This document shows positions 8,406 to 28,253 of a stretch of DNA of 28,896 bases, piece by piece; positions within the stretch are counted from its first letter, which is position 1, and every line of letters starts with the position of its first letter. The translations under genes and the position numbers were made by a program. The DNA is from a virus (taxonomy: Duplodnaviria > Caudoviricetes): the IMG/VR virus record IMGVR_UViG_3300011338_000802, positions 1-28,896 of that record, one strand, 5' to 3'. Under the pieces are notes generated by a model. It saw nothing but the letters and a program-made list of their open reading frames with translations. It was not told the DNA's origin and did no database searches.

Positions 8406-10387
8406 TGTCTAAAGAGTATTTCGTTTACGACCTTGAGACCCGCAGCGAGTGCGACTTAAAGAAATGTGGGGCCGCTGAGTACGCTAGGCACCCCACCACA
8501 ACAATCTTTTGTGTCTCATGGGCGATGGGCACTAAAGAGGCTCTTAAGGACGCGCCAGTGCATTCTTGGTCCCCTGTTTTCGGGGGGCCAAAGCACGTTC
8601 TGCACGGGATGCTCTTAAACAAAGACGTGACCCTTGTGGCCCATAATGCGGGCTTCGAGGCTTCAGTTACTAGGCATGTGCTTTCTCGCCTTTTAAACGA
8701 CGCTAGACTGCGCGAGCTACCGCCCGAGCGCTTCCTTTGCACCGCGAGCTTAGCGTCGAGCCTTGCGCTTCCTCGCTCGCTTGAGGGGGCTTGTAGCGCT
8801 TATGGACTGGGCGAGAAGAAAGACGTCGAGGGCAGAAAACTCATCCTGAAATACACTAAGCCCCGACGCCCCACAGCGAACAACCCCGAGAAATGGCACA
8901 ACAAAATCGACGAGCTAAAGCGCATTATTGAGTACTGCGAAAACGACGTCAGAGCCGAAGTGGAATTGTTTTTAAAAGCGTACCCTTTATCGGACTTTGA
9001 AAGACAGCTCTGGATATTAGACCAAAAAATAAACGAGCGGGGCTTCACTGTGGATAGAGAACTTGTTGGCGCGGCCCTCGAGCTTATCGAAATTGAAAAA
9101 GACAGAATCGAAAAAGAGACTGTTAGGATTTCAAAAGGCGAAATCCCGTCCACTACGCAAAGGGACAAAACACTTTTATGGTTGGAAGCTAATGGCGTCG
9201 AGCTTCCTAATTTGCAGGCAAAAACAATTCGAGATTTTCTAGCAATTGGTGAAGGCCCCGAGCATTGTCTTGATATTTTGAGACTGAGACAAGCTGCCTC
9301 AAAAACCAGTACGGCGAAATACGAGGCCTTTGAGGCGCGCTCGAGGTCAGACGGACGCAGTCGAGACAATTTAATTTTCCATTCCGCAAGTACCGGAAGG
9401 TGGGCGGGCAGCGGCGTACAAATTCAAAACTTGCCTCGGCCTAAAACAAAAGACACCGATCAATTGGCAGAAATTTTGAAAAGTAAAGACCTCGAAATGT
9501 TGCGCTTACTTTATGGCGACCCAATGAGTGCCATTTCTGATGCGCTCCGTTCTTGTATCATCGCTTCGCCCGGCAAAGAGCTTTTCGTAGTCGATTACGC
9601 TTCTATCGAAGTGCGAGTGCTCTTTTGGTTGGCCGGCCATGAAGAGGGATTGAAAGTTTTGCGCGAAGGCAAAGACTTGTATATCGAAATGGCCGCAAAG
9701 ATTTTTAAAAAACTCCCGAAAGGCGTAACCAAAGAAGAGCGCGCTCTAGGAAAAGCTGTAATTCTAGGATGCGGCTACTCGATGAGTGCAGGGAAATTTT
9801 TTGAGACTTGCAAAATGTTCGGCATGGACGTCACTGAAGAATTGGCGAAACTCGCGGTTGATACCTATAGAAAAGTCCACGCGCCTGTTGTCGAGCTTTG
9901 GAAAAAAACATCGCAGACAAGCATCGCGGCAGTACAAAACAAAAGAGAATATAAATGTGGAAAAGTAAAATGGGGCGTCAGAGATAATTTTCTTTATGCC
10001 GAACTCCCAAGCGGAAGGCGTCTTTCTTATTACAAGCCGTCGCTTAGAAATGAACTAACACCTTGGAATGAAATGCGTCCCGTTCTTTATTCTTGGGCGA
10101 CAAACGGACTCACTCGGAAATTTGAAGAATATAAAAACTACGGCGGCATGCAAGTAGAGAACTTATCGCAAGCCGTCTCAAGGGATTTAATCGCAGACGC
10201 AATGATAAAGATAGAAAATGCAGGCTTCGAGGTGTTGCTTTCAGTACACGACGAGTTAATCGCTGAAAGAAAAATTGGCGAGAGCACCCTAAAAGAATTT
10301 GAAAATATTATGCTAGATACTCCCGCTTGGGCCGAGGGGCTCCCCATCGCGGTTGAGGGTTTTAAGAGTGCCCGCTATAGGAAATAA
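8405..10387 (+). CDS. polA: family A DNA polymerase with 3'-5' exonuclease
   Basis: YDLETRS, AHNAGFE, YCENDV (exonuclease); TGRWAG, DYASIEVRV (motif A), RALGKAVILGCGY (motif B), VHDE (motif C). Confidence 0.95.
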   Translation: MSKEYFVYDLETRSECDLKKCGAAEYARHPTTTIFCVSWAMGTKEALKDAPVHSWSPVFGGPKHVLHGMLLNKDVTLVAHNAGFEASVTRHVLSRLLNDARLRELPPERFLCTASLASSLALPRSLEGACSAYGLGEKKDVEGRKLILKYTKPRRPTANNPEKWHNKIDELKRIIEYCENDVRAEVELFLKAYPLSDFERQLWILDQKINERGFTVDRELVGAALELIEIEKDRIEKETVRISKGEIPSTTQRDKTLLWLEANGVELPNLQAKTIRDFLAIGEGPEHCLDILRLRQAASKTSTAKYEAFEARSRSDGRSRDNLIFHSASTGRWAGSGVQIQNLPRPKTKDTDQLAEILKSKDLEMLRLLYGDPMSAISDALRSCIIASPGKELFVVDYASIEVRVLFWLAGHEEGLKVLREGKDLYIEMAAKIFKKLPKGVTKEERALGKAVILGCGYSMSAGKFFETCKMFGMDVTEELAKLAVDTYRKVHAPVVELWKKTSQTSIAAVQNKREYKCGKVKWGVRDNFLYAELPSGRRLSYYKPSLRNELTPWNEMRPVLYSWATNGLTRKFEEYKNYGGMQVENLSQAVSRDLIADAMIKIENAGFEVLLSVHDELIAERKIGESTLKEFENIMLDTPAWAEGLPIAVEGFKSARYRK

Positions 10388-13254: not shown

Positions 13255-14012
13255 GAATGCTTTTTGTTTACTTTGCGGTTTTAAGTTTCGCTTTTTCTTT
13301 CTCGAAAAAAACTGAATCAAGTTCCTCGTCCTCTTCGAGCGTATCTAGTCAGTCGTCAAGCGCGCAGAGCCCGGACGACTTGAGAGGCAAGATACTATTC
13401 CATGTACAGCAAAGTGATTGCTACAAAAAGCATTGGAAAGATAGGGGCCAAATTCCTTTGGGCTTTCTTCAAGGTATGGCTATTAATTTCTACAAGAACA
13501 AAGATGAAGCTGTGCGCCCATTGGGGCTATCGGCTAAAGATGCTCTCATGTATTACGGAATAGCTGAAGCTTCAAAGATTGCTGAGTACACCTTTCTTGT
13601 GGGTCTTAGCATGCGTGAAAGCTCAGGTCGTCATTGCGTGGGTAGAGACTCAACAGCGACTAACACTGATGCAGAGACATGTGAGGCGGGAGCTTTTCAA
13701 TTTTCTTACAATTCGAGAAGTGCCGACCCAGAATTGAAACCGCTAATAGAATATTATTCTAAGCACCCCGATCAATGCGAGCTTTTATTGTTTTCGAAAA
13801 ACGTAAAGTGCAAGCCATCCGACTGGAAAAACTACGGCAGTGGTGCAGGTGTTGCGTTTCAAGAGCTGTCTAAGAAGTGTCCTGTTTTTGCCGTTGAGTA
13901 TGCGGCAATCTTAATTAGAACTAGGCGCTCCCACTTCGGACCTATCGGGCGCAAAGAAGTGGAATACTCTAGCGCATGTAAAAAAATGTTTAGTGAGATT
14001 TCTAAGTTTTAA
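13251..14012 (+). CDS. exported lysozyme/lytic transglycosylase-like protein (putative signal-anchor endolysin)
   Basis: Hydrophobic N-terminus, poly-Ser linker, MRESSG (candidate catalytic Glu) and AGAFQF; several Cys. Confidence 0.55.
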   Translation: MRMLFVYFAVLSFAFSFSKKTESSSSSSSSVSSQSSSAQSPDDLRGKILFHVQQSDCYKKHWKDRGQIPLGFLQGMAINFYKNKDEAVRPLGLSAKDALMYYGIAEASKIAEYTFLVGLSMRESSGRHCVGRDSTATNTDAETCEAGAFQFSYNSRSADPELKPLIEYYSKHPDQCELLLFSKNVKCKPSDWKNYGSGAGVAFQELSKKCPVFAVEYAAILIRTRRSHFGPIGRKEVEYSSACKKMFSEISKF

Positions 14013-14281
14013 TCGAAAGAATGCGTTTGAAGACAGAATTCATTTTCAGCTTCGACGTCTCGTATGAACTCGCGCATGTAGCCCTTTAATTCCTCTATAG
14101 CTTTATCATTGTACCCATTGACAGAGAAACATTCCGCGCAAGCGTCTAGGCTTTCTTTTAATTCTTTGTAGGTGAAACTCCTTTCGCCGCACACTTGAAA
14201 CACTTGAGTGTCTCTTGTGTCGCCGCTTTGCGCGCTCCAATATGTATACCAAACAGAATTCGACCAACGGGAATAGCTCAT
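14009..14281 (-). CDS. hypothetical phage protein (MSYSRWS type)
   Basis: Last gene of the convergent leftward operon. Confidence 0.65.
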   Translation of the reverse strand: MSYSRWSNSVWYTYWSAQSGDTRDTQVFQVCGERSFTYKELKESLDACAECFSVNGYNDKAIEELKGYMREFIRDVEAENEFCLQTHSFD

Positions 14282-14282
14282 C

Positions 14283-14471
14283 CTAATAGGGCCTTTTCCT
14301 AGAAAAAGTTAAATGGCCGCAGACTTCTTTAACTATCTTTAATCGACGTGCTTGCCGGTAGGCCGACGGGTAAGCTTTATAAAAATCTCTTATAGTGGCG
14401 AACTTCGCGGCCTCTTGTTTGATTCTTTGTTTAGTCCAAAAACCGTAAGGAACTTTTCTTGCTCCGCTCAT
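14283..14471 (-). CDS. small basic protein resembling a homing-endonuclease-associated helical repeat
   Basis: WTKQ.I..EA.KF....F.K.YPSAY..A........C.H pattern. Confidence 0.55.
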   Translation of the reverse strand: MSGARKVPYGFWTKQRIKQEAAKFATIRDFYKAYPSAYRQARRLKIVKEVCGHLTFSRKRPY

Positions 14472-14644
14472 GATTCACCCTCACAGACAAAAGTTTTGTA
14501 AGACAGCTCAAGAAATTTCTCCGATAGTTTTCTTATCTGTTCCACAATCTGCGGTATAGACTCTCCCTCGTATTCCTCGGGGTCGTTTTTCTTAAAGGCT
14601 TCCGCAATTTCGGTTAGGCGTTTTTCGTCGTCTTTAATGCTCAT
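14468..14644 (-). CDS. 58-aa hypothetical protein (not in ORF track)
   Basis: MSIKDDEKRLTEIAEAF...FVCEGES; ATGA coupling. Confidence 0.6.
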   Translation of the reverse strand: MSIKDDEKRLTEIAEAFKKNDPEEYEGESIPQIVEQIRKLSEKFLELSYKTFVCEGES

Positions 14645-14662
14645 GATTTTTCTCTTTGTTTT

Positions 14663-14863
14663 TCAATCAATGGCTTCGATAACTGGAAAAAAAGTGGGGC
14701 TCTCAAGGCGTCCGGCTTTGTAGTATTCTTCTATTTTATCGAGTCCCGTCATCCGCATCAGCTCGTTAATAGACTCTCGGGCTTCGGGGAATCTCATGCG
14801 AAGGCCCATTAACGAACCTGATATGAAAATAAATTTTTCTCTATCGGTGAATTCTTTTGTCAT
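14663..14863 (-). CDS. hypothetical protein (likely start MTKEF)
   Basis: AGGAG RBS, ATGA coupling. Confidence 0.6.
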   Translation of the reverse strand: MTKEFTDREKFIFISGSLMGLRMRFPEARESINELMRMTGLDKIEEYYKAGRLESPTFFPVIEAID

Positions 14864-15150
14864 TCTATTTCTCCTTTTTCTATTAGTTCTAGGCAAGCGT
14901 TAAACCCGCCATTGTATACGTCGATGTCTGTGCCTGTTCCTATTACTCTTCTCGGGGGCAAAACCAATCTATTATTCCTCATACGTATATTTTGCTGTTT
15001 ATACGTATGTTGTATATTCTCACGCTCTGCTTTGATTGCTTGGGATATTGAATAAATTAAATTATCTCTATCATTTCCAATTGGTACGCCGCAAATATTT
15101 ACAATATCTTGTGCGATACTCTCGGGGCTTTTGCTTTTCTGTGTGGTCAT
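14860..15150 (-). CDS. hypothetical protein with LP.R...GFNAC motif
   Basis: C-terminal G(F/W)N.C motif common in phage accessory proteins. Confidence 0.65.
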   Translation of the reverse strand: MTTQKSKSPESIAQDIVNICGVPIGNDRDNLIYSISQAIKAERENIQHTYKQQNIRMRNNRLVLPPRRVIGTGTDIDVYNGGFNACLELIEKGEIE

Positions 15151-15221
15151 GTCATTTCCGCTAAATCATAAACGCCCACTCCCATTCCACCAATAAAACT
15201 ATTTAAATCAAAATTTTTCAT
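15147..15221 (-). CDS. 24-aa micro-ORF (not in ORF track)
   Basis: MKNFDLNSFIGGMGVGVYDLAEMT; fills the gap exactly with coupled start and stop. Confidence 0.35.
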   Translation of the reverse strand: MKNFDLNSFIGGMGVGVYDLAEMT

Positions 15222-15222
15222 T

Positions 15223-15741
15223 TCATTTTCCCTCGTTAAGAGATTTGATTTCGTCTATGCAATTATTCCAACCAACATTTGCCCATACTTCGTAATTAAC
15301 TTTCCCCGTTACATCTTTTCTCTCAGGCAATTTCAGCGCCTTGCTTTTTTGTCCTGCTAGATATGCCACATTCCACAACTGTTCAAACAAGGCTTTAGTA
15401 GGTGCATAATGCGCTTGATTCTTAATCCAAATAGGTTCAGTGCCATCACGAAAAGATACATTCTTACTTATCCACTCCTCAAACTCCGCACACTCAGTAA
15501 GCACCACACTTTGGTTTATATCATCCACTTTTTGGTCGATAACCTCAGTAACCTTTGATGCATCAACAAGCGCTGCGGATATTAAACTTTCAAGGTGTGC
15601 TCTCATATTTGCATCAACAGCTAATGCTCTACGAAAATAATTATCGTAATCTTGTTTAGAGTTTTGAGTTTGGCTCATCCAAAACAATTTCCAATCATTA
15701 GCTATTTTCTGTGCGATTTTATAGGCCTGTTCTTTGGTCAT
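15223..15741 (-). CDS. hypothetical protein with LP.R...GWNNC motif
   Basis: ATGA coupling; C-terminal motif shared with 14860-15150. Confidence 0.7.
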   Translation of the reverse strand: MTKEQAYKIAQKIANDWKLFWMSQTQNSKQDYDNYFRRALAVDANMRAHLESLISAALVDASKVTEVIDQKVDDINQSVVLTECAEFEEWISKNVSFRDGTEPIWIKNQAHYAPTKALFEQLWNVAYLAGQKSKALKLPERKDVTGKVNYEVWANVGWNNCIDEIKSLNEGK

Positions 15742-15989
15742 AAAGGAAACTCCGGCGATGTTCTTTTTGCTAATCTTTGTAATGTATCGCTAGCAGTCCA
15801 CGCCATACGAGAATCAAATTCCCATTCTTTTGGGGCCATTGAGCTACATGTTTTACAAGCCAAGGTGCCAAGGGTGTTAACTGCAATTGAGTATTTGTCA
15901 GACAATCTTAAATAACACGAATGCGCTTCGTCTAATGTTTTCTTTAATTGCTCATATTCTTTTTTATAAGTTTTGATTTTCTTTTTCAT
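15738..15989 (-). CDS. hypothetical protein (coiled coil plus CxxC; likely start MKKKI)
   Basis: GGAG RBS, ATGA coupling. Confidence 0.6.
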   Translation of the reverse strand: MKKKIKTYKKEYEQLKKTLDEAHSCYLRLSDKYSIAVNTLGTLACKTCSSMAPKEWEFDSRMAWTASDTLQRLAKRTSPEFPL

Positions 15990-16141
15990 ACATAACTCCA
16001 AAAACTAAATTGTTCTCTTTTGAAAGCATTCCAATAAATTGTTGTATGCCAAGTTTTATCAAAAAACTCTCCATTCATTTCCTCAAGAGAAGCTACCCAT
16101 GCACCTGCTATTTCAGGGTGTATCCATATTATTTTTTTCAT
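15986..16141 (-). CDS. 51-aa Trp-rich hypothetical protein (not in ORF track)
   Basis: MKKIIWIHPEIAGAWVASLEEMNGEFFDKTWHTTIYWNAFKREQFSFWSYV; fills the operon gap. Confidence 0.55.
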   Translation of the reverse strand: MKKIIWIHPEIAGAWVASLEEMNGEFFDKTWHTTIYWNAFKREQFSFWSYV

Positions 16142-16145
16142 ATAC

Positions 16146-16499
16146 TCACACGCCCTTGTCGTCGCTTAGCTTTTCCGAAAGCCACGCTCCCATACGGTTA
16201 GCGCCATCATGCGCACTTGCAGCGGCTATTCCTGCTTCTGTATCTAAATCTTCCATTGCGTCTCGCATATTACCTTCGCCATCAAAGTGCTCAAAAAACT
16301 CTTTTGCTATTTCTAATCGCTTTTTACGTATTTGATTATCAGAAGGATATTTTCCCAAAGCAGACTGCCTGCCTTTTGCGTAGGCTTCGTTAAACATTTG
16401 TAAAAATAATTCTTTATTCCATGCCGAATATCTACTCGGCTCTGTGCCGAATATTTTATCCATTATTTCTTCAAACTCGCGCTCTTTATTGTTTGTCAT
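16146..16499 (-). CDS. hypothetical protein
   Basis: ATGA coupling to the CsrA-like gene. Confidence 0.65.
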   Translation of the reverse strand: MTNNKEREFEEIMDKIFGTEPSRYSAWNKELFLQMFNEAYAKGRQSALGKYPSDNQIRKKRLEIAKEFFEHFDGEGNMRDAMEDLDTEAGIAAASAHDGANRMGAWLSEKLSDDKGV

Positions 16500-16672
16500 T
16501 TGTCACCATTTTTGCGTGGCTCTTTTCTGGTAAAAGGTCTTGTTATTTTCATATCTGATGGGGCTTTAATTGCTATTCGTATACCTGAATTTTCGACTAT
16601 TGCTACAACTTGTATCTGAATATCATTTCCAATAGAAAAAAATTCTCCTGCTTTTAATGTAATTACTAACAT
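16496..16672 (-). CDS. csrA: CsrA/RsmA-family RNA-binding translational regulator (not in ORF track)
   Basis: MLVITLKAGEFFSIGNDIQIQVVAIVENSGIRIAIKAPSDMKITR aligns by eye with the CsrA pattern ML.LTR..GE.I.IGD.I.V.V......VRIGI.AP..V...R. Confidence 0.8.
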   Translation of the reverse strand: MLVITLKAGEFFSIGNDIQIQVVAIVENSGIRIAIKAPSDMKITRPFTRKEPRKNGDK

Positions 16673-16712
16673 TTAAACTCACTCTTTCTAAGCTCGCGCT
16701 CTTTGTTATCGG

Positions 16713-16910
16713 TCATTTTAAATCTCCTATTACGATATGAAATGGTCCGAAATGAATGGCGTATCCATAAATAGAAATGTAAGTGTCAGAATTAATGCTT
16801 TTAAATCTAGCAATGAAGCTTCGGCCCCAAGAAAAGAAAGCATCGCCATCGCATCTTTTACTATAATAAAATCTGAATAATTGAATTTTTCTTAAGTAAT
16901 TCTCACTCAT
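16713..16910 (-). CDS. hypothetical protein
   Basis: GAGG RBS; aromatic-rich 65 aa. Confidence 0.55.
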   Translation of the reverse strand: MSENYLRKIQLFRFYYSKRCDGDAFFSWGRSFIARFKSINSDTYISIYGYAIHFGPFHIVIGDLK

Positions 16911-16929
16911 AAAATTGCCTCGCTTTTAT

Positions 16930-17073
16930 TCATTTCTTTTTCGCTTTCTTCTTAGGACGTCCGCCTTTTAGGCCGTTCTCTTTTGCGGCGTTTGCTTTCT
17001 TTTTTGATTTCGACTTGCCGCCCTCGGCACCGATTTTCGAAAAATATTCTTTTACTGATTTAGGCGTGTTCAT
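16930..17073 (-). CDS. 47-aa basic KGG/AT-hook-like putative DNA-binding protein (not in ORF track)
   Basis: YFSKIGAEGGKSKSKKKANAAKENGLKGGRPKKK; GGAG RBS, ATGA coupling. Confidence 0.7.
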   Translation of the reverse strand: MNTPKSVKEYFSKIGAEGGKSKSKKKANAAKENGLKGGRPKKKAKKK

Positions 17074-17576: not shown

Positions 17577-18299
17577 TTAGTTCACCCCAAACAAAGTATC
17601 TAAACTATCGAGCACCGCTTCGCCCAACACTTGTGAACCTACATCGGTATAGTGAACGTCGTCGGGGCTTACGTGCTCACTAACAATTGTTTGCGAAACG
17701 CTGTAGAGGTCAAGCACCGGTATCCCCTCAAGAGCCATCACGTCGCGAGCAATATTGTTTCTATTCACCACGTCGGCGTTGTTCCTATGTGGTGTCGCAG
17801 GCAAAACTTCGGTCGTTAAAATAAAAAGTGGATGCGCAGTCTTCGCTTTTATCTTTTGCGCAATCGCGTGCAAGTTCGCCGCATAGTCTGAGTCCGAAAC
17901 ATTTTCCCAATCCGCGATGTCCCACAAGCCGTTGTTCCAAGTGATAGCTTCAAAACTACTTCGGCTCGCAAGCCAAGTGTCTATGTTTTGCGCTGTCCAT
18001 GAGGACGTCATCGCGTTGCAAGGGTTGTGCACGACATCGTATGTGGGAGAAAGTGCGGCTTCAATTGTAGGCGTGTATCCAATAGAGATAGAGTCGCCGA
18101 TAATTAAAACAGTAGGCGCGCCGGTAGCTGCAGGCAGAGATTCGTTGGCGGGACAAATGCCGCCGCTTTGTTTTTTGGAGCAAGCAAAGAGAGATAAGAA
18201 AAGAAGGGCTAAGAGAAGCGCACTGAAAAACATTCTGACTCTTTTTCTTCTCTGAAGTTCTTTGTACCTAGCCAACATGAAAAAATGTTCTGGGCTCAT
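17577..18299 (-). CDS. SGNH/GDSL hydrolase lipoprotein (likely start MSPEH)
   Basis: Lipobox LFAC after a basic and hydrophobic leader; IIGDSIS, NNGLWD, DDVHY catalytic blocks. Confidence 0.85.
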   Translation of the reverse strand: MSPEHFFMLARYKELQRRKRVRMFFSALLLALLFLSLFACSKKQSGGICPANESLPAATGAPTVLIIGDSISIGYTPTIEAALSPTYDVVHNPCNAMTSSWTAQNIDTWLASRSSFEAITWNNGLWDIADWENVSDSDYAANLHAIAQKIKAKTAHPLFILTTEVLPATPHRNNADVVNRNNIARDVMALEGIPVLDLYSVSQTIVSEHVSPDDVHYTDVGSQVLGEAVLDSLDTLFGVN

Positions 18300-18424
18300 T
18301 TCGAGCCCCCTTTCTTTTTTGCGGCCTTGAGACTTCGGACTTTTCCGGGTGTCGCACCGGTTAGTTTCTTTACAAGTTTTTGTACCGTCTCTTTTATTTG
18401 TTTCGCACCTTTTTTGCTTTTCAT
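18296..18424 (-). CDS. 42-aa Lys-rich peptide (not in ORF track)
   Basis: MKSKKGAKQIKETVQKLVKKLTGATPGKVRSLKAAKKKGGSK; ATGA overlap with the SGNH gene; TATTAT -10-like box 6 nt upstream, possibly leaderless. Confidence 0.5.
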   Translation of the reverse strand: MKSKKGAKQIKETVQKLVKKLTGATPGKVRSLKAAKKKGGSK

Positions 18425-18514
18425 ACATATATAATAACCCAAGCGGCTTCGGATTAGTACAGAAAAGCGACGATGTAAACTATTGAATTGTCGTTTTGTT
18501 TGTTAAAAATAGGT

Positions 18515-19550: not shown

Positions 19551-19940
19551 TTAATCGCACTCGCAAACAGTAGCCGTCAAAACTTCAGCGCTCTCGACAA
19601 CACCACTTAGGACAGTACTGTCTTCGACCACACCTTCGACAGCGCATGAGCTTGAGGAATACTCTAAAGGTATCTCAATGCTTGTGCTTGAATGGGTGCT
19701 AGAAAAAGTAGTGAACCCCGCGTCGTCGTAAACTAAATACTGCACTGACACGAAAGGCTTATTGGGCATCAGCGCCGTGCTGTTGGTGTAGAGCCCATTA
19801 GCTTCGTGGGCCAGAGTAAAAGGGCTCCCTAAAATTTCTGCGTCCGAGTTATCCCTGACCACTGCGCGCACAAATTTATTTGTGGCGTTGTCAAAGAGCT
19901 GAAGCACTAAAGGAATAATGTCATTAGGTTTTAGATTCAC
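19551..19940 (-). CDS. putative virion structural protein, C-terminal CxC
   Basis: Beta-rich, E..NGLY motif, repeated GVVE, ends in VCECD. Confidence 0.55.
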   Translation of the reverse strand: MNLKPNDIIPLVLQLFDNATNKFVRAVVRDNSDAEILGSPFTLAHEANGLYTNSTALMPNKPFVSVQYLVYDDAGFTTFSSTHSSTSIEIPLEYSSSSCAVEGVVEDSTVLSGVVESAEVLTATVCECD

Positions 19941-20437
19941 TGCGCACCTAAAAATTGTTTAATCTGATTTATTTTAGCATCGAGGTGCGGAAGTTCTTCT
20001 AAAAGCATAGAAAGCTCTCCGCGTCTTGCGAACAGCAATATCAATTCTTGCTTAGCTTTTTCTTTTTGGGCGTTCAATGGCTCTGCGCCAACCGCGATAA
20101 AAGAAATCAATTCTGCCTCGCTCATTTTTCCATAATGACGAGATTTCAATTCACCTTTTTCAAATACCATAACCGCGGGAGCGCCGATTGAATTGCTTCC
20201 GGGGTTGGGCTTCATGTAAAGTTTTTTAAATTCGCTGCTACCGAGTTTTGGGTCGGGTCTAGCAGGCAAGTTAAAACATGCGAAGTTATCCGCGATAGTC
20301 CCGATTTGCTCAGCGGCTACTTTTTCAAACACGGGCTTAAACTCATCGCACTTGGGACAGTCATTCATCCAAACTTTAATTGCGACTTTTTGCCCGCTCG
20401 ATATCAAGCTAAGCAATTCTTTCTCATTCATTTCCAT
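19937..20437 (-). CDS. thioredoxin-fold protein with C-terminal coiled coil
   Basis: VAIKVWMNDCPKCDEFKPVFEKVA and IGAPAVMVFEKGE (cis-Pro loop); no signal peptide. Confidence 0.88.
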   Translation of the reverse strand: MEMNEKELLSLISSGQKVAIKVWMNDCPKCDEFKPVFEKVAAEQIGTIADNFACFNLPARPDPKLGSSEFKKLYMKPNPGSNSIGAPAVMVFEKGELKSRHYGKMSEAELISFIAVGAEPLNAQKEKAKQELILLFARRGELSMLLEELPHLDAKINQIKQFLGAQ

Positions 20438-20681
20438 TTTGTATTTCCTCTATGGACGAGATTAAGAGAGAGATTTTTTCTAGTCTAGTCGTGAGCGTAG
20501 CTATGTGTGACTCATGGCTTTCTTTCTCTTTTAACAGCTCTTCTTTCAAAGAGAGGTGCTTATCCTCAATTTCTTGCCGCGCAAAAACCTCGTCACCTGA
20601 AAGTCTTATCGTGTACTCAACGTCTGGATTTTTCTGAGCTAAAATTGCAGCTATCTGCTTTTCATGATTGTTTAACGCCAT
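20424..20681 (-). CDS. small coiled-coil protein (possible fibre chaperone)
   Basis: Heptad-like C-terminal half; abuts the Cys-rich gene and overlaps the thioredoxin start. Confidence 0.6.
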   Translation of the reverse strand: MALNNHEKQIAAILAQKNPDVEYTIRLSGDEVFARQEIEDKHLSLKEELLKEKESHESHIATLTTRLEKISLLISSIEEIQNGNE

Positions 20682-22544
20682 TTAAAAACTCCCCAATTTG
20701 TACCATTTTTTTGATGAGAAATACGTTCCGGAGCAAGAGCCTTCAGACCCCGTGTAAGTGCCCTCGCACGAATCCCCGTCCCATGTGCAACCGTTGCCGC
20801 TTTGTGCATTACAAGTGCTTTCATCGGCTCCAAAATCGCTGCAGGCTTTTAATGTCCAAGAGCATCCGCTGTTTGCGTTGCAGTTACTTTCATTTGTAAA
20901 TGTGGAACAGTTTGCCGGTCTATTAAAGTGATGAACTAAAACTGAATCTCCGGGTGCTAAAGAAATAGAACTTTCTAAAGTGTCTCCGGGAGACGCCACG
21001 ACGGAAATGTTTCCACTCGGGCCTATATTTTTCGTGTAGTAAAATCTCGAAACATTTGACCTGTTAGCAATTGAAGAGGGCAACAGCGTGTAAGTCGCGC
21101 CTGATAGCCAGCTGCATCCGGGCTCAGCGTTACATGCTGTAGAGCCATCGTCTGTTAAGTTTGCGCAGCTAGCGGTGCCTTGGCAAACAGAACCATAAGT
21201 TCCGCTACAATTGCCTGTTGCGTAATTCCCACTGCAGATACTTCCGTTGCAAACTCCGCCAGTGCATGAGGTATTGTATTGGCCATTGCAAGTAACCCCA
21301 TCCCATGAACAACCCGATTGAGCATTGCAACTTGATTCATCAAAAAAGTTAGAGGCGCAATCCGAAAAATTCCAAGTGCAAGAGTTAGCTTCGCAATTGG
21401 GTTGGTCCGTGTAACCACTGCAGGTATCCGACCATGAACAACCCGTAGTTCCGTTGCATGTGGCCTCATCAGTTATGGCGGGACACGTAGACGTATCCCA
21501 TGAACAGCTGCCGCCGTAGGCGTCGTCTTGGCTTTCGCAAGTCGATTGATCGGTATTGTTTGCAGTTGAGCACGGAGCTTGCTCCCAGACACATCCAGAA
21601 TTGCCTTCGCATTCTCCCTGATTCGTTCCACTGTAGCTACTGCATGGATTACCGGCAAACCAAGTACACCCAGCTAAAGCGTGAGCATCGCAGGTCGCTT
21701 GGTTGGTGTATGTGGCACAAGCCGTAGGCGTTCCAGTACATTCAAAAGCAGCGGAGCCATCGCCGTAAACAACCATTTCGTCCGAGTAGGTGTACGTCGC
21801 ACTTGTTACTAAGACGCCTTTGCCCGCAAAGCCGCCGTAGCTAGATAGCCTAACAGTGGCGCCTGTGTCAGCTAGCCCCGCAGTAACGGGGCCATTGTTG
21901 TAAGACGCTTGAGTATTGTAGATACCGCCCGAATAAAGCTGAATTAATTGCGCTGCGGACTCTGCCGTACTTCCAATAAAGAAAGTGTGCATTAAGCCTC
22001 GATAATCAATCGTTCCGCCTGCATCTATACCAAAGCCCGCTTTAATTGTGCTTCCAAATTTGAAGCCGATATTTGTTTTACTGCCGCTTGGATTAGTTAA
22101 AAGAAAGTTTTGAAGCGTGCTTATTGTGGATGAATTATTCACCACGCTTTCGATCATTCCGTACATTTTCAAAGACGGATAACTTAGGCCATCCTGTATG
22201 GTCGTATAAAGTTCTAGTAAGTCGCTAAAGGCTCCGCCCGCGATTGAAAATCTTTTTTTATAAATAGCACTTGGATTTACGCTTCCTTGAACAGGTAAAA
22301 TATGCTCATCAAATTTTATTGATTTACTAGCGCCGCCAGAATTTGTTGACCATCCTTGCGCTTCTAGTTCAATAGAAGGAGATACTTGTTGAGCGCCGCT
22401 CGCCGCTGGCGAAATATTTCTAAGCTTTAAAATAGGTGCAGTCGTGGCCCCTAAAGAACTTTTTGTAAAAGTTTGCAGAGCTTTCCACTCGTTTGCTAGA
22501 GGCAAAAGATTTTTAACAGAAGGATTGAATAGTCCTGATGTCAC
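20682..22544 (-). CDS. cysteine-rich repeat tail fibre / receptor-binding-like protein
   Basis: Cys-free beta-rich first 268 aa, then 36 Cys in nine C-x7-10-C-x4-10-C-x-W repeats and nine CxG motifs, inserted in a fibre-type domain. Confidence 0.7.
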   Translation of the reverse strand: MTSGLFNPSVKNLLPLANEWKALQTFTKSSLGATTAPILKLRNISPAASGAQQVSPSIELEAQGWSTNSGGASKSIKFDEHILPVQGSVNPSAIYKKRFSIAGGAFSDLLELYTTIQDGLSYPSLKMYGMIESVVNNSSTISTLQNFLLTNPSGSKTNIGFKFGSTIKAGFGIDAGGTIDYRGLMHTFFIGSTAESAAQLIQLYSGGIYNTQASYNNGPVTAGLADTGATVRLSSYGGFAGKGVLVTSATYTYSDEMVVYGDGSAAFECTGTPTACATYTNQATCDAHALAGCTWFAGNPCSSYSGTNQGECEGNSGCVWEQAPCSTANNTDQSTCESQDDAYGGSCSWDTSTCPAITDEATCNGTTGCSWSDTCSGYTDQPNCEANSCTWNFSDCASNFFDESSCNAQSGCSWDGVTCNGQYNTSCTGGVCNGSICSGNYATGNCSGTYGSVCQGTASCANLTDDGSTACNAEPGCSWLSGATYTLLPSSIANRSNVSRFYYTKNIGPSGNISVVASPGDTLESSISLAPGDSVLVHHFNRPANCSTFTNESNCNANSGCSWTLKACSDFGADESTCNAQSGNGCTWDGDSCEGTYTGSEGSCSGTYFSSKKWYKLGSF

Positions 22545-22958
22545 TTAGAAGTCTCCGCATTGTGCCACAACAGAAATCGCTTTAGCTGCCGTGACAGTAG
22601 TTAGCGCTTTAACTTTTAGAACCGCGCCGTTAGCGAGGTACATGTGCTTATTTCCGTTTACATCGGTGTTGAATGCTATAAATTGAGAGTGCGCAAAAAC
22701 TGATACCAAAGGAACCGCATTCGTGAAGCCCGAGTTAGCTGGGATTGAAAGCGTGCCCACGACGTAATCTGTCGCTGAAACTGTAATGACAAATTGCAAG
22801 TCCTTCGCCGATGTGTCCGTGCTTGAAACGATGATACTATCGACACGAGTGCCGTTAGCTCCGGGAGTGACAAGCGTTTTTAAAGACGTCGTGTCCGCGG
22901 GGAGAATCTGTGCGACATTTGTTTTGATAGTTTGTGGAAAAACGGGTGTTGCGGTCAT
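22545..22958 (-). CDS. putative virion structural protein
   Basis: Beta-rich 137 aa (M.ATPVF...G.RVDSI...SIPA.SG...L..G..LK) in the tail cassette. Confidence 0.6.
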   Translation of the reverse strand: MTATPVFPQTIKTNVAQILPADTTSLKTLVTPGANGTRVDSIIVSSTDTSAKDLQFVITVSATDYVVGTLSIPANSGFTNAVPLVSVFAHSQFIAFNTDVNGNKHMYLANGAVLKVKALTTVTAAKAISVVAQCGDF

Positions 22959-23490: not shown

Positions 23491-23952
23491 TTAGAACATA
23501 CCTTTTTCTGACACTGAGTCTTGCGCTGCGCAAAAAGTGTTTGCGTCAATTAAAATTTTGATGTCTTCGGGCACGTAAAGGATTTCCGTCACAAGTTTGG
23601 TGGCGTAAGGGATGCCGAGGAAGGTCTTTATTTCTTCGAAATTTGAGCATAGCGCGGGCTTATCCTCGCAAACGTAAAAGCGCCTTTCGCCCACTTTGCA
23701 GATGAGCCTAACGTCTCTTAAGCGTTTTAAATCCGACTCGTTGTGAAAGTCGTAAACGATAACATCTTGAGAAATACAATCACCATTTATGAACTCTAGG
23801 CAGGTCGTATGTGTGGGGCCATTGTATGTCGGGCGAAATCTCAGCTCTTGCTCGATTAGCGGCCCGTGATCTAGGGAGCTACATGCAGAAAAAAGTGAGA
23901 GCGAGACATAAGAAAAGAAATACAAAAAACGTGAGTAAAAGAGATTTCTCAT
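23491..23952 (-). CDS. Cys-rich lipoprotein (o-spanin-like position)
   Basis: Lipobox FSAC; further Cys residues; follows two small membrane/coiled-coil genes. Confidence 0.55.
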   Translation of the reverse strand: MRNLFYSRFLYFFSYVSLSLFSACSSLDHGPLIEQELRFRPTYNGPTHTTCLEFINGDCISQDVIVYDFHNESDLKRLRDVRLICKVGERRFYVCEDKPALCSNFEEIKTFLGIPYATKLVTEILYVPEDIKILIDANTFCAAQDSVSEKGMF

Positions 23953-27200: not shown

Positions 27201-28253
27201 TTAAATCCAAGTAATTGTCCCCATTGTTTTTAACTGGCCAGCGGTTGCTACGACGTCAGCGGATGGGACTGTCACGTCGCTATCAATTTCGCCCGCTGCG
27301 CTAGATATCGCTTCTCTAATTTGAGAAAGATAGATTGTTCCGCCGGGCTCTGAGACTCTCAAAAGTAAGTCTTCAAGCTCCGCTTGCACCGCTGCACGAA
27401 TCGCTGCCGTGTCGGGTGAAATGTTTATTGTAAAATTTAAAGGTGAATCTGTCGGAGCGAATACTGTTACGTCGGCAGTTAACGGCCTGACTGTCTCGAT
27501 GTAATCCGCAACGTCTGCAATTTCACCGGCGCTTGGGAAAAGTGTGGGGGTGTCGTTGTCCCTGACGAATGCGACACTAACAGTGCCAACGCCTAAATAG
27601 TTTTCATAAACCCACACGCGTGTGACGCCTGTAATTTCTTTCGCCCAAAATTCGTAGTCTGTTGCATTCCCGCCTCTTGGGGGATTTTGTATCTTTGCTA
27701 AAATTCTTTCGCGCCAAGCCTCAAGACCCTCAACGTCGCTGCCGCCAGTGATGCCGTCGGGCTCGACTAACCCGTCTGAGGTTATGCCAGCAATAGGAGT
27801 TACAATGGTCAGCGTCTCGCCTGAAAGCATGTTGCCCGTATCGCCTGCGGTTAAGCAAACAACATCGACAACAACGGTGCCGCTAGTTACTGTTCCGTCA
27901 GCTTCGACTTGATATAAAATCCCGTCGCTTCTTTGGAGTTGAGTGAGAGCGGGCAAAATTGTCCCGTTAGTTCCGCTAAATTCCACTTGTCCGTCAGCGA
28001 AGGTCGCAGCGTTTCTTGCTACGGCCCAAAGTGAACCCCACCTTGCGAGGTTGTCTTGGGCCGTGTCTACAAAGGCCTCTCTAGAGATGTACTGTATGTA
28101 CCCATAAGCGGAATGCACGGCCCCGCCAAAAGCGGCGGCCATTGCTTTTATAACAGAGCGGCGGAGTGCCGAAATAGAACCTAAAACGCGTGTAGAAATA
28201 TCACTCGAGATTCGCTCAACGATTTCAGAAAGAGTCGGACGATTAAAAGCCAT
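27201..28253 (-). CDS. baseplate J / Mu gp47 protein
   Basis: RPTL, GN, GGSDVE..E.WRER, PP.GG...DY..WA, GTV motifs. Confidence 0.92.
   Translation of the reverse strand: MAFNRPTLSEIVERISSDISTRVLGSISALRRSVIKAMAAAFGGAVHSAYGYIQYISREAFVDTAQDNLARWGSLWAVARNAATFADGQVEFSGTNGTILPALTQLQRSDGILYQVEADGTVTSGTVVVDVVCLTAGDTGNMLSGETLTIVTPIAGITSDGLVEPDGITGGSDVEGLEAWRERILAKIQNPPRGGNATDYEFWAKEITGVTRVWVYENYLGVGTVSVAFVRDNDTPTLFPSAGEIADVADYIETVRPLTADVTVFAPTDSPLNFTINISPDTAAIRAAVQAELEDLLLRVSEPGGTIYLSQIREAISSAAGEIDSDVTVPSADVVATAGQLKTMGTITWI

Follow-up and report, generated by a model that had tools for sequence, protein, structure and literature searches.

The DNA analysed here, referred to as the window, covers the whole of a 28,896-base IMG/VR virus record (IMGVR_UViG_3300011338_000802; Duplodnaviria, Caudoviricetes), with an estimated completeness of 39%. 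Its gene P0001 (20682..22544, minus strand) encodes a protein of 620 amino acids (aa) that, judged from sequence, is most likely a phage fibre and probably trimeric. In the reading that we consider probable, the C-terminal beta-sandwich knob of this fibre carries two cysteine (Cys)-rich loop insertions that fold as there-and-back rods. Each outgoing module of three Cys, ending in a CxW motif, would lie against a single CxG unit on the returning strand. Disulfides would likely staple the two arms together, two being formed by the four Cys of each module. The mirrored, hairpin register of the two arms is held with high confidence. That the Cys form disulfides, rather than binding metal or remaining as free thiols, is held with fair confidence.

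Mapping of the Cys on the translation placed all 36 in two blocks, one at aa 269-477 (21108-21740) and the other at aa 546-604 (20727-20909). With W denoting CxW, G denoting CxG and c denoting any other Cys, block 1 reads G ccW cGW ccW cGW GcW ccW GGGGGG ccW, and block 2 reads ccW ccW GG. Block 1 opens with a CTG (C269), continues with six CxW-ending triplets (R1 to R6, ending at C293 CTW, C318 CVW, C347 CSW, C369 CSW, C389 CTW and C412 CSW) and six return CxG motifs (C419 CNG, C427 CTG, C432 CNG, C437 CSG, C446 CSG and C454 CQG), and closes with one further triplet (C460, C471 and C477, the last in CSW). Block 2 contains two triplets, ending in CSW at 561 and CTW at 586, followed by CEG at 593 and CSG at 604. 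A preliminary description made from the letters of this DNA had parsed 21108-21740 as a CxG, six repeats, six CxG and one repeat, and 20727-20909 as two repeats followed by two CxG; both orders, with their coordinates, were recovered by the Cys mapping. The accompanying tally of nine repeats and nine CxG is correct for CxG motifs outside the repeats, but the protein holds 12 CxG in total, three of which (C312, C363 and C375) lie inside repeats.

The same description had assigned a common motif, DES(S/T)CNAQSG..CxWDGxxCxGxY, to both turning points. This motif is present at the turn of block 1 (DESSCNAQSGCSWDGVTCNGQY, aa 402-423) and at the turn of block 2 (DESTCNAQSGNGCTWDGDSCEGTY, aa 574-597). 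Among 217 rod-bearing proteins, the strict form C.W[DN]G..C.G.[YF] was found in 45 and DE[ST][ST]C[NE]AQ[ST]G in 19. The turn motif common to the two blocks characterises the subfamily of the window rather than the whole family.

Nine of the 12 tryptophan residues of the protein are located in CxW motifs. When aa 269-479 were shuffled 20,000 times, seven or more CxW motifs appeared in none of the shuffles and a run of six CxG in one; the Cys pattern is not due to chance. Across 61 sequences with six repeats and six return Cys (the 6/6 class), sharing 37-81% identity, 34 of the 36 Cys were invariant and the other two were conserved in at least 90%. No tandem repeats were found at the DNA level in the fibre gene, and the repeats are thus old rather than recent duplications. 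The closest spacing between two Cys is 5, with no CxxC or CxC among the 36, and rod 1 (aa 269-479) contains 28 Cys and one histidine (His). The parts of the protein, with AlphaFold2 (AF2) confidence given as the predicted local distance difference test (pLDDT), are the following:

21780..22544, minus strand: N-terminal beta-rich part, aa 1-255; AF2 pLDDT 81-96 from aa 21, nearly all strands
21741..21779, minus strand: opening strand or strands of the knob beta-sandwich (aa 256-268), within the split domain matched by tailspike beta-sandwiches
21720..21740, minus strand: G0, the first CxG (C269, CTG), candidate outer bracket of rod 1; C269 invariant in 120 sequences
21291..21719, minus strand: predicted outgoing arm of rod 1, R1-R6, aa 276-418; from the Cys map and DSSP assignments of both models
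21168..21290, minus strand: predicted returning arm of rod 1, G1-G6, aa 419-459; near-continuous strand by DSSP, with an anti-diagonal of mutual information (MI) with R6 to R1
21108..21167, minus strand: R7, putative base module of rod 1 (C460, C471 and C477 CSW); all three Cys invariant in 120 sequences
20910..21107, minus strand: middle piece of the knob beta-sandwich, aa 480-545; pLDDT 88-97, aligns to tailspike beta-sandwiches
20727..20909, minus strand: rod 2, two repeats (aa 546-592) plus C593 and C604; from the Cys map and homologues with 0-3 modules
20685..20726, minus strand: last knob strand, aa 607-620 (..KKWYKLGSF); DSSP strand at 602-619

Searches of metagenome protein collections yielded 170 homologues of P0001, and a further search yielded 988 representatives (at 50% identity) at E <= 1e-3, 104 of them at E <= 1e-30; some of the weaker representatives share the N-terminal module only and have no Cys. 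At least 217 of the proteins examined bear rods. P0001 itself matched no Pfam family at E <= 1, no PHROG at E <= 0.1 (and so none of tail-fibre type), no NCBIfam family, nothing in a profile search of PDB sequences at E <= 1, and none of 50,697 phage records searched by tblastn. A search of the ESM Atlas by features returned structure rows with TM-scores of at most 0.28, and the protein's own Atlas model has a predicted TM-score of 0.25. By these sequence searches, the rod family appears to be known from metagenomes alone and to lie outside the catalogued families.

The homologues were parsed automatically, with the outgoing arm taken to end at the final CxW or CxF/Y ahead of the longest CxG run and the last three Cys of the block taken as the terminal repeat. 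Repeat count equalled return-Cys count in 110 of 121 close homologues; of 91 additional representatives (at 50% identity) with such a block, 53 likewise had equal counts. Seven classes were represented among 165 parsed proteins: 3/3 in three, 4/4 in eight, 5/5 in 69, 6/6 in 74, 7/7 in nine, and 8/8 and 10/10 in one each. P0155 is a natural form with three modules and P0128 one with ten. The earlier expectation that homologues would always show equal numbers of repeats and CxG therefore holds from 3/3 to 10/10 for the majority but not for the remaining misfits, most of which were judged to carry a single additional Cys, trailing or leading, or else a degenerate W. A parse-free count gave a block-1 Cys number modulo 4 of 0 in 127 of 210 proteins, 1 in 71, 2 in nine and 3 in three. 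Block 2 of the 217 rod-bearing proteins contained eight Cys in 185, four in 11, 12 in one, nine or 10 in six and none in 14; a four-Cys block 2 consists of one repeat and one CxG with an intact C-terminus, and the 12-Cys form of three and three. With rod 1 ranging from 3/3 to 10/10 and rod 2 comprising 0, 1, 2 or 3 modules, the proposal that rod length varies by paired gain and loss is supported.

Some homologues carry Cys beyond this scheme. A leading extra Cys (token 'cG...') occurs in P0023, P0025 and P0027, for example, and in our reading of the first homologue set a mid-knob Cys co-occurs with a leading extra Cys only, in all six cases. A subfamily that includes P0117, P0136, P0199 and P0201 has a knob piece of 53 residues as opposed to about 70, one extra Cys after block 1, and a block 2 that reads cccWGGcG; the two surplus Cys are found together and may provide one further link. 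Odd totals of Cys are frequent, so some Cys may be unpaired or may link different chains.

The register of the two arms was assessed by contrasts drawn within the same sequences, the mirrored register being defined as repeat i with return unit n+1-i. CxW-CxW spacings and return-Cys spacings correlated in the antiparallel register (r = 0.625), in contrast to the parallel register (r = -0.03) and rolled registers (r = -0.29 to 0.11), and the antiparallel value was reached by none of 2,000 within-protein shuffles. With units counted from the turn, Spearman coefficients of unit length were 0.21, 0.56, 0.68 and 0.32 on the diagonal and at most 0.18 off the diagonal. A GH[STA]GC tip repeat was accompanied by a 10-residue first return unit in 24/24 cases, compared with 7/130 otherwise, while the cross-control against the second return unit gave p = 1. 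In P0091, DDxYGG repeats at R3 and R6 are matched by 9-residue returns at G5 and G2. Matches of this kind, like those of the CP-repeat type, are in part positional conservation from both ends, and the contrasts counted from the turn and the covariation were therefore given more weight.

Covariation was measured as MI with average product correction; the five residues that follow each CxW Cys were compared with the residues flanking every return Cys. For the 74 proteins of the 6/6 class, the pairs R1-G6, R2-G5, R3-G4, R4-G3, R5-G2 and R6-G1 were each both row and column maximum, and the mirror mean was reached by 5 of 5,000 random one-to-one assignments. In the 5/5 class (69 proteins), the mirrored pairs were likewise all row and column maxima, and 36 of 5,000 random assignments reached the mirror mean. 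Both frequencies are approximately that of the mirror assignment itself. The signal after the third Cys was sharp, with values of 6.8-6.9 for the mirror register as opposed to at most 0.4 at shifts of one unit in either direction, while residues flanking the first Cys covaried with two adjacent return units, the pattern expected of a junction. MI between R1 and G6, which lie about 160 residues apart, was as strong as that of nearer pairs, and neither G5 nor G1 was linked to R1. By nesting, G0 (C269) would pair with the last repeat, R7, a pairing for which nesting is the only basis.

Predicted structures were consistent with this register. The AF2 model of the whole protein had a pLDDT of 88.3, with 75-92 in rod 1, and rod 1 modelled alone reached 91.5, its five models (89.4-91.5) showing the same secondary structure. 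By DSSP, each repeat in both models comprises a pair of short helices followed by a strand starting at CxW, and the return arm (aa 419-455) forms a single strand with hardly a break (E419-428, 430-434, 436-438, 440-450 and 453-455). Confidence in the full model drops symmetrically on both arms toward the turn. The modules are thus predicted to be zipped to one long return strand, and rod lengths can be estimated, at about 3.3 Å per residue, as roughly 12 nm for rod 1 and 4-5 nm for rod 2. When the rod-1 model was compared with 48,161 solved chains (cluster representatives) by VIA-align, three chains reached Z >= 2, the best at 2.3, and none reached 5; by this comparison, the modelled rod has no convincing counterpart among those chains. 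Two ideas of the preliminary description gain support here: that the fourth Cys of each module lies on a nested antiparallel returning strand is favoured by the counts, the covariation, the unit lengths and types and the AF2 return strand, and that there are two hairpin rods of about seven and two modules agrees with two confident AF2 models with a continuous return strand.

The same structural comparison, made with the AF2 model of the fibre, located the rods within a known kind of domain. Between 85 and 92 model residues, drawn from across aa ~239-620, aligned to contiguous phage spike domains of 90-100 residues. The closest was Solidus gp83 residues 609-699 of an Acinetobacter phage (24qj; Z 12.4, root-mean-square deviation [rmsd] 1.5 Å), followed by CBA120 TSP4 residues 79-178 (7rej; Z 10.7), Pa223 capsid spike residues 195-292 (9ny6_C; Z 10.2) and a KP1 baseplate protein (Z 9.9); tailspike-type matches to the knob had Z values of 9.1-12.4 overall. 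Although the knob (aa ~239-268, 480-545 and 607-620) superposes on tailspike beta-sandwiches with an rmsd of 1.5-2.3 Å over 88-92 residues, those domains are contiguous, whereas the fibre knob has loop insertions of 211 and 61 residues. In the model, aa ~256-268, 480-545 and 607-620 form one small beta-sandwich of about 90 residues. Since the knob is split three ways and its structural matches are contiguous, both rods appear to be loop insertions, and each inserted chain must come back to its origin.

Homologues that differ in their rods agree with this division. In six homologues without rod 2, the flanks are contiguous and the preceding knob strand runs straight into the final ..NWY.. strand, the equivalent of aa 607-620. 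P0078 has a three-module rod 2 together with an extra, rod-less copy of the knob domain, whose beta1 is comparable to aa 256-268. The additional C-terminal domain of P0089 has a weak match to Pfam Phage_depo_C. The N-terminal part of the fibre gave weak structural matches to solved fibre domains (Z <= 5.9), and collagen repeats are found at the N-terminus of homologues P0016, P0103 and P0108. A module at aa ~25-115 recurs, in up to seven copies, in giant proteins that are almost free of Cys, including P0189 (2451 aa), P0200 (3216 aa) and P0216 (1261 aa), among others. The rods and the N-terminal module are thus independent building blocks.

The fibre gene has close neighbours on the same strand, one of which encodes a thioredoxin-like protein:

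22545..22958, minus strand: 137-aa gene directly upstream of the fibre gene; also upstream in 10 related loci
20682..22544, minus strand: fibre gene P0001, 620 aa, GTG start; no signal peptide evident by eye
20424..20681, minus strand: 85-aa protein between the fibre and thioredoxin-like genes; abuts the fibre stop
19937..20437, minus strand: putative thioredoxin-fold protein of 166 aa, with CPKC at aa 27-30 and a C-terminal helical tail; from sub-threshold profiles

The 166-aa protein scored 20.5 bits against Pfam Thioredoxin (cut-off 23.5) and matched PHROG 22, 'thioredoxin domain', at E 2.6e-4, its homologue in locus L005 doing so at E 2.3e-6; NCBIfam models for TrxC, thioredoxin and PedC/BrcD were matched, all below cut-off. 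A CxxC thioredoxin-like open reading frame (ORF) was found downstream of the fibre gene, within tens of bases, in 19 of 23 distinct related loci, which differ in gene order and have fibre identities of 31-77%. The CxxC, placed at the N-terminus of helix 1, is invariant in these 19 ORFs (as CPKC, CPYC, CSFC, CSHC, CSWC, CRYC, CRPC or CSNC), and a conserved proline lies downstream of it. Of the other four loci, one is cut by a contig end and three lack a thioredoxin-like gene. From this gene linkage, we consider it an even proposition that the thioredoxin-like protein acts on the fibre.

Several of the thioredoxin-like loci have further features. The ORF at 5556-6134 of L023 has a signal-peptide-like N-terminus and a hydrophobic C-terminus, and several ORFs among L015, L018, L024 and L027-L029 have a second CxxC near the C-terminus (CESC, CDGC, CLSC or CTSC). 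In L005, a locus with 43% identity, the thioredoxin-like gene is directly followed by an 83-aa protein with several CxxC pairs (8521-8772; phrog_13558, E 1.9e-14). The sole relative found in 185,579 species genomes is a match at 6001-7455 of L007 (34% identity), a 58.7-kb contig binned as Candidatus Saccharibacteria. The genes near the match look cellular: a DsbA-like CPFC protein lies 1.1 kb downstream and is followed by GAPDH-like and RpiB-like ORFs. The match could represent the edge of a prophage, a cellular copy or an error of contig binning.

The fibre gene belongs to a minus-strand gene run that follows the Mu-type baseplate genes of the record (gp46, Baseplate_J and gp48). The run begins with a 235-aa protein that matches a PHROG for a tail-fibre N-terminus, continues with proteins of 443, 117, 78 and 153 aa and a short gap, and ends with proteins of 115, 137, 620 (the fibre), 85, 166 (thioredoxin-like), 129 and 109 aa. 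The sole Pfam match of the 137-aa upstream protein is a weak one to DUF6921 (E 0.006). The 85-aa gene overlaps the thioredoxin-like gene by 14 nucleotides and is kept in four related loci; its product has a coiled-coil look when judged by eye and matched no family in scans of the Pfam, PHROGs and NCBIfam type. The record also contains a replication module composed of an SNF2 helicase, a DUF2800 nuclease, an Enc34-type single-stranded DNA-binding protein, a family A polymerase and DUF3987.

Other features of the window were recorded. The 153-aa protein of the run (23491-23952, minus strand) has an N-terminus resembling a lipoprotein signal (..SLSLFSAC SS..), matched no family in Pfam and PHROGs scans, and may be a phage lipoprotein, for example one acting in superinfection exclusion. 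On the 3' side of the fibre cluster, a 283-aa protein (17577-18428, minus strand) gave a sub-threshold match to a GDSL/SGNH hydrolase (Pfam Lipase_GDSL_2, E 1.1e-5) and may be a candidate receptor-modifying esterase. The interval 14000-17000 has a G+C fraction of 0.365-0.418, compared with 0.43-0.50 in most other 1-kb windows, and holds small minus-strand ORFs, none with a family match. Baseplate J (27201-28253, minus strand) is closest to that of Bordetella phages (51-52%), then Paraburkholderia and Ralstonia phages (43-45%), a likeness that gives a weak hint of a host from the Burkholderiales.

Taken as a whole, these observations are best explained, in our view with good confidence, by a phage fibre knob with two there-and-back, disulfide-stapled rods. 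Such rods would project rigidly, hardened by oxidation, from the distal knob of a trimeric tail fibre, and may set its reach or its contact with the host surface. Rod length would evolve as a module and its return unit are gained or lost as a pair; since the two are adjacent in sequence at the tip, a single insertion or deletion suffices there. The thioredoxin-fold CxxC protein would likely form, shuffle or protect the approximately 18 disulfides during assembly. Disulfides are favoured over metal because of the four Cys per module, the lack of a CxxC knuckle, the likeness to disulfide-rich PSI domains discussed below and the linked thioredoxin-fold gene.

Several observations weigh against this explanation. 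The fibre has no signal peptide, and virions assemble in the reducing cytoplasm; the Cys connectivity, and even the existence of disulfides, is inferred. No sulfhydryl oxidase was seen in the window, which represents about 39% of the genome. The thioredoxin-like gene is missing in L022 and L025, L007 has the DsbA-like cellular gene 1.1 kb away instead, and PHROGs files the family of this gene under nucleotide metabolism. The automatic parse fails in 11/121 and 38/91 proteins, and the block-1 Cys count is odd in 71/210, so that not every Cys can be in an intrachain pair. Covariation in rod 2 is weak. A missing-unit test comparing relatives with n and n-1 units was noisy, with an exact mirror in 43/109 and a parallel result in 15/109, and was not leaned on because the short return units carry too little signal. 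Since the homologues are related, the covariation measures are inflated in absolute terms and it is the contrasts between registers that carry the argument; AF2 uses the same alignments, and its models are therefore not independent of the covariation. Finally, no hypervariable receptor-binding tip was found among 13 relatives, region-wise identity being 0.39-0.68 everywhere.

The alternative that survives best, although we consider it unlikely, is that the protein is a virion appendage other than a tail fibre, for example a head fibre, a neck fibre or a decoration, and that the thioredoxin-like gene serves nucleotide metabolism and is linked to it by synteny only. In L005, the fibre homologue sits between head and tail genes, with the major-capsid region on one side and the sheath and tube genes on the other, and this position leaves the tail location less than certain. 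A capsid spike (9ny6_C) is among the knob matches, PHROG 22 is classed as nucleotide metabolism, and the fibre matches no tail-fibre PHROG. Set against these points, the gene in the window follows baseplate gp46, J and gp48 and the protein with a PHROG tail-fibre N-terminus; the thioredoxin-like ORF stays within tens of bases of the fibre stop across differing gene orders and 31-77% fibre identity; and no ribonucleotide-reductase family was reported by a Pfam scan of the window ORFs. A tail location is considered probable.

A second alternative retains the hairpin but has the four Cys of each module bind zinc or iron. Four Cys per module would suit such a site, as would a reducing cytoplasm and a protein that lacks a signal peptide. 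Cys4 metal sites, however, usually use CxxC or CxC knuckles, of which there are none among the 36 Cys; the CxxC gene in 19/23 loci points to thiol-disulfide chemistry, and PSI domains, which are disulfide-rich, are the only structural echoes. In the available part of its description, the His-bound iron of T4 gp37 provides a precedent for a metal-stapled there-and-back needle (PMC6957217). Metal binding by the fibre rods is judged improbable. The least probable alternative is a string of beads with local disulfides and a separate CxG run, in which equal counts would be a by-product of a variable central segment: the variable zone is indeed contiguous around the supposed turn, conservation of the first repeats and of the last CxG units could arise without contact and the missing-unit test is noisy, but this alternative is opposed by the equal counts across all seven classes, by the MI that ties R1 to the distant G6 and not to G5 or G1, by the insertion of both blocks in loops of an otherwise contiguous domain to which the chain must return, and by a return strand that, in both AF2 models, needs partner strands.

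Phage fibres decide which bacteria a phage reaches. The rods would add a structural principle to these fibres, namely rigid rods built of bracket-like Cys modules, 3 to 10 in number, and could serve as simple, tunable rigid spacers in protein engineering. The linkage to a thioredoxin-like gene makes it testable how a protein with 36 conserved Cys folds in a virus that is assembled in a reducing cytoplasm. A more far-reaching and tentative possibility is that the fibre represents an undescribed architecture: a length-adjustable, single-chain 'disulfide zipper' rod of split PSI-like mini-modules, with a dedicated thioredoxin-fold enzyme. Because each mini-module is split into three outgoing Cys and one returning Cys, such a rod could grow or shrink by whole brackets only. 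If this is true, a dedicated enzyme oxidises or proof-reads some 18 disulfides in a virion protein that is synthesised in the cytoplasm of the bacterium, and the system would be a phage counterpart to the cytoplasmic disulfide pathways of large eukaryotic viruses.

The preliminary description had noted that the repeat loosely recalls eukaryotic PSI domains. A PSI domain is a self-contained, contiguous Cys-rich unit and, like the rod modules, PSI (PF01437) is small and has a Cys-x-Trp signature. The best and the third of the three solved chains that match rod 1 at Z >= 2 are PSI domains, each at a very low Z: PSI2 of plexin A2 (5l74_A; Z 2.3, rmsd 1.7 Å over 31 residues) and the PSI domain of semaphorin 2b (6qp8_A; Z 2.0, rmsd 1.6 Å over 30 residues). 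The 31 plexin residues come from a compact 32-residue stretch but align to rod-1 model residues that lie anywhere from 12 to 196; this interval takes in the base-proximal ends of the two arms, which a hairpin would place side by side. The semaphorin alignment covers model residues 132-161 (aa 393-422 of the protein), around the turn. These Z values are far below the level that would show a shared fold, and P0001 has no Pfam match to PSI at E <= 1. Moreover, the rod module differs from PSI in having three contiguous Cys and a fourth on a strand up to about 160 residues away, with the modules stacked. The resemblance is a faint echo and does not amount to evidence of membership; the weak likeness raises the question of convergence versus an ancient common origin.

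Poxviruses also assemble in a reducing compartment and possess a cytoplasmic disulfide pathway, in which a thioredoxin-fold redox protein of their own acts on virion proteins. That pathway includes a flavin sulfhydryl oxidase, whereas none was seen in the 28.9-kb, ~39%-complete phage record. A full-text literature search gave no description of cysteine-ladder or hairpin fibre rods, or of a thioredoxin partner of a phage fibre. A precedent for disulfide-bonded phage tail parts is provided by Pam3, a Mu-like minimal myophage of freshwater cyanobacteria, in which virion disulfides were identified by cryo-electron microscopy, mass spectrometry and dithiothreitol treatment (PMC9942802). As far as the available part of that report extends, a few disulfides tie the Pam3 fibre to the wedge, the fibre has no Cys-repeat rods and a thioredoxin-like partner is not mentioned.

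The closest analogue in design is the needle of gp37, at the receptor end of the T4 long tail fibre, likewise an elongated out-and-back insertion in a globular domain with regularly spaced staples. Domain D10 consists of residues 811-881 and 1010-1026, and the D11 needle of residues 882-1009 holds seven iron ions bound by His of three intertwined chains (PMC6957217). No sequence or fold match to gp37 emerged from the profile search of PDB sequences or the comparison with 48,161 chains. In the portion of the gp37 account available, the staples are His-bound iron, whereas rod 1 of the fibre has four Cys per module and a single His. The T4 needle is built from three intertwined chains, whereas the fibre rod is modelled confidently as a single-chain hairpin.

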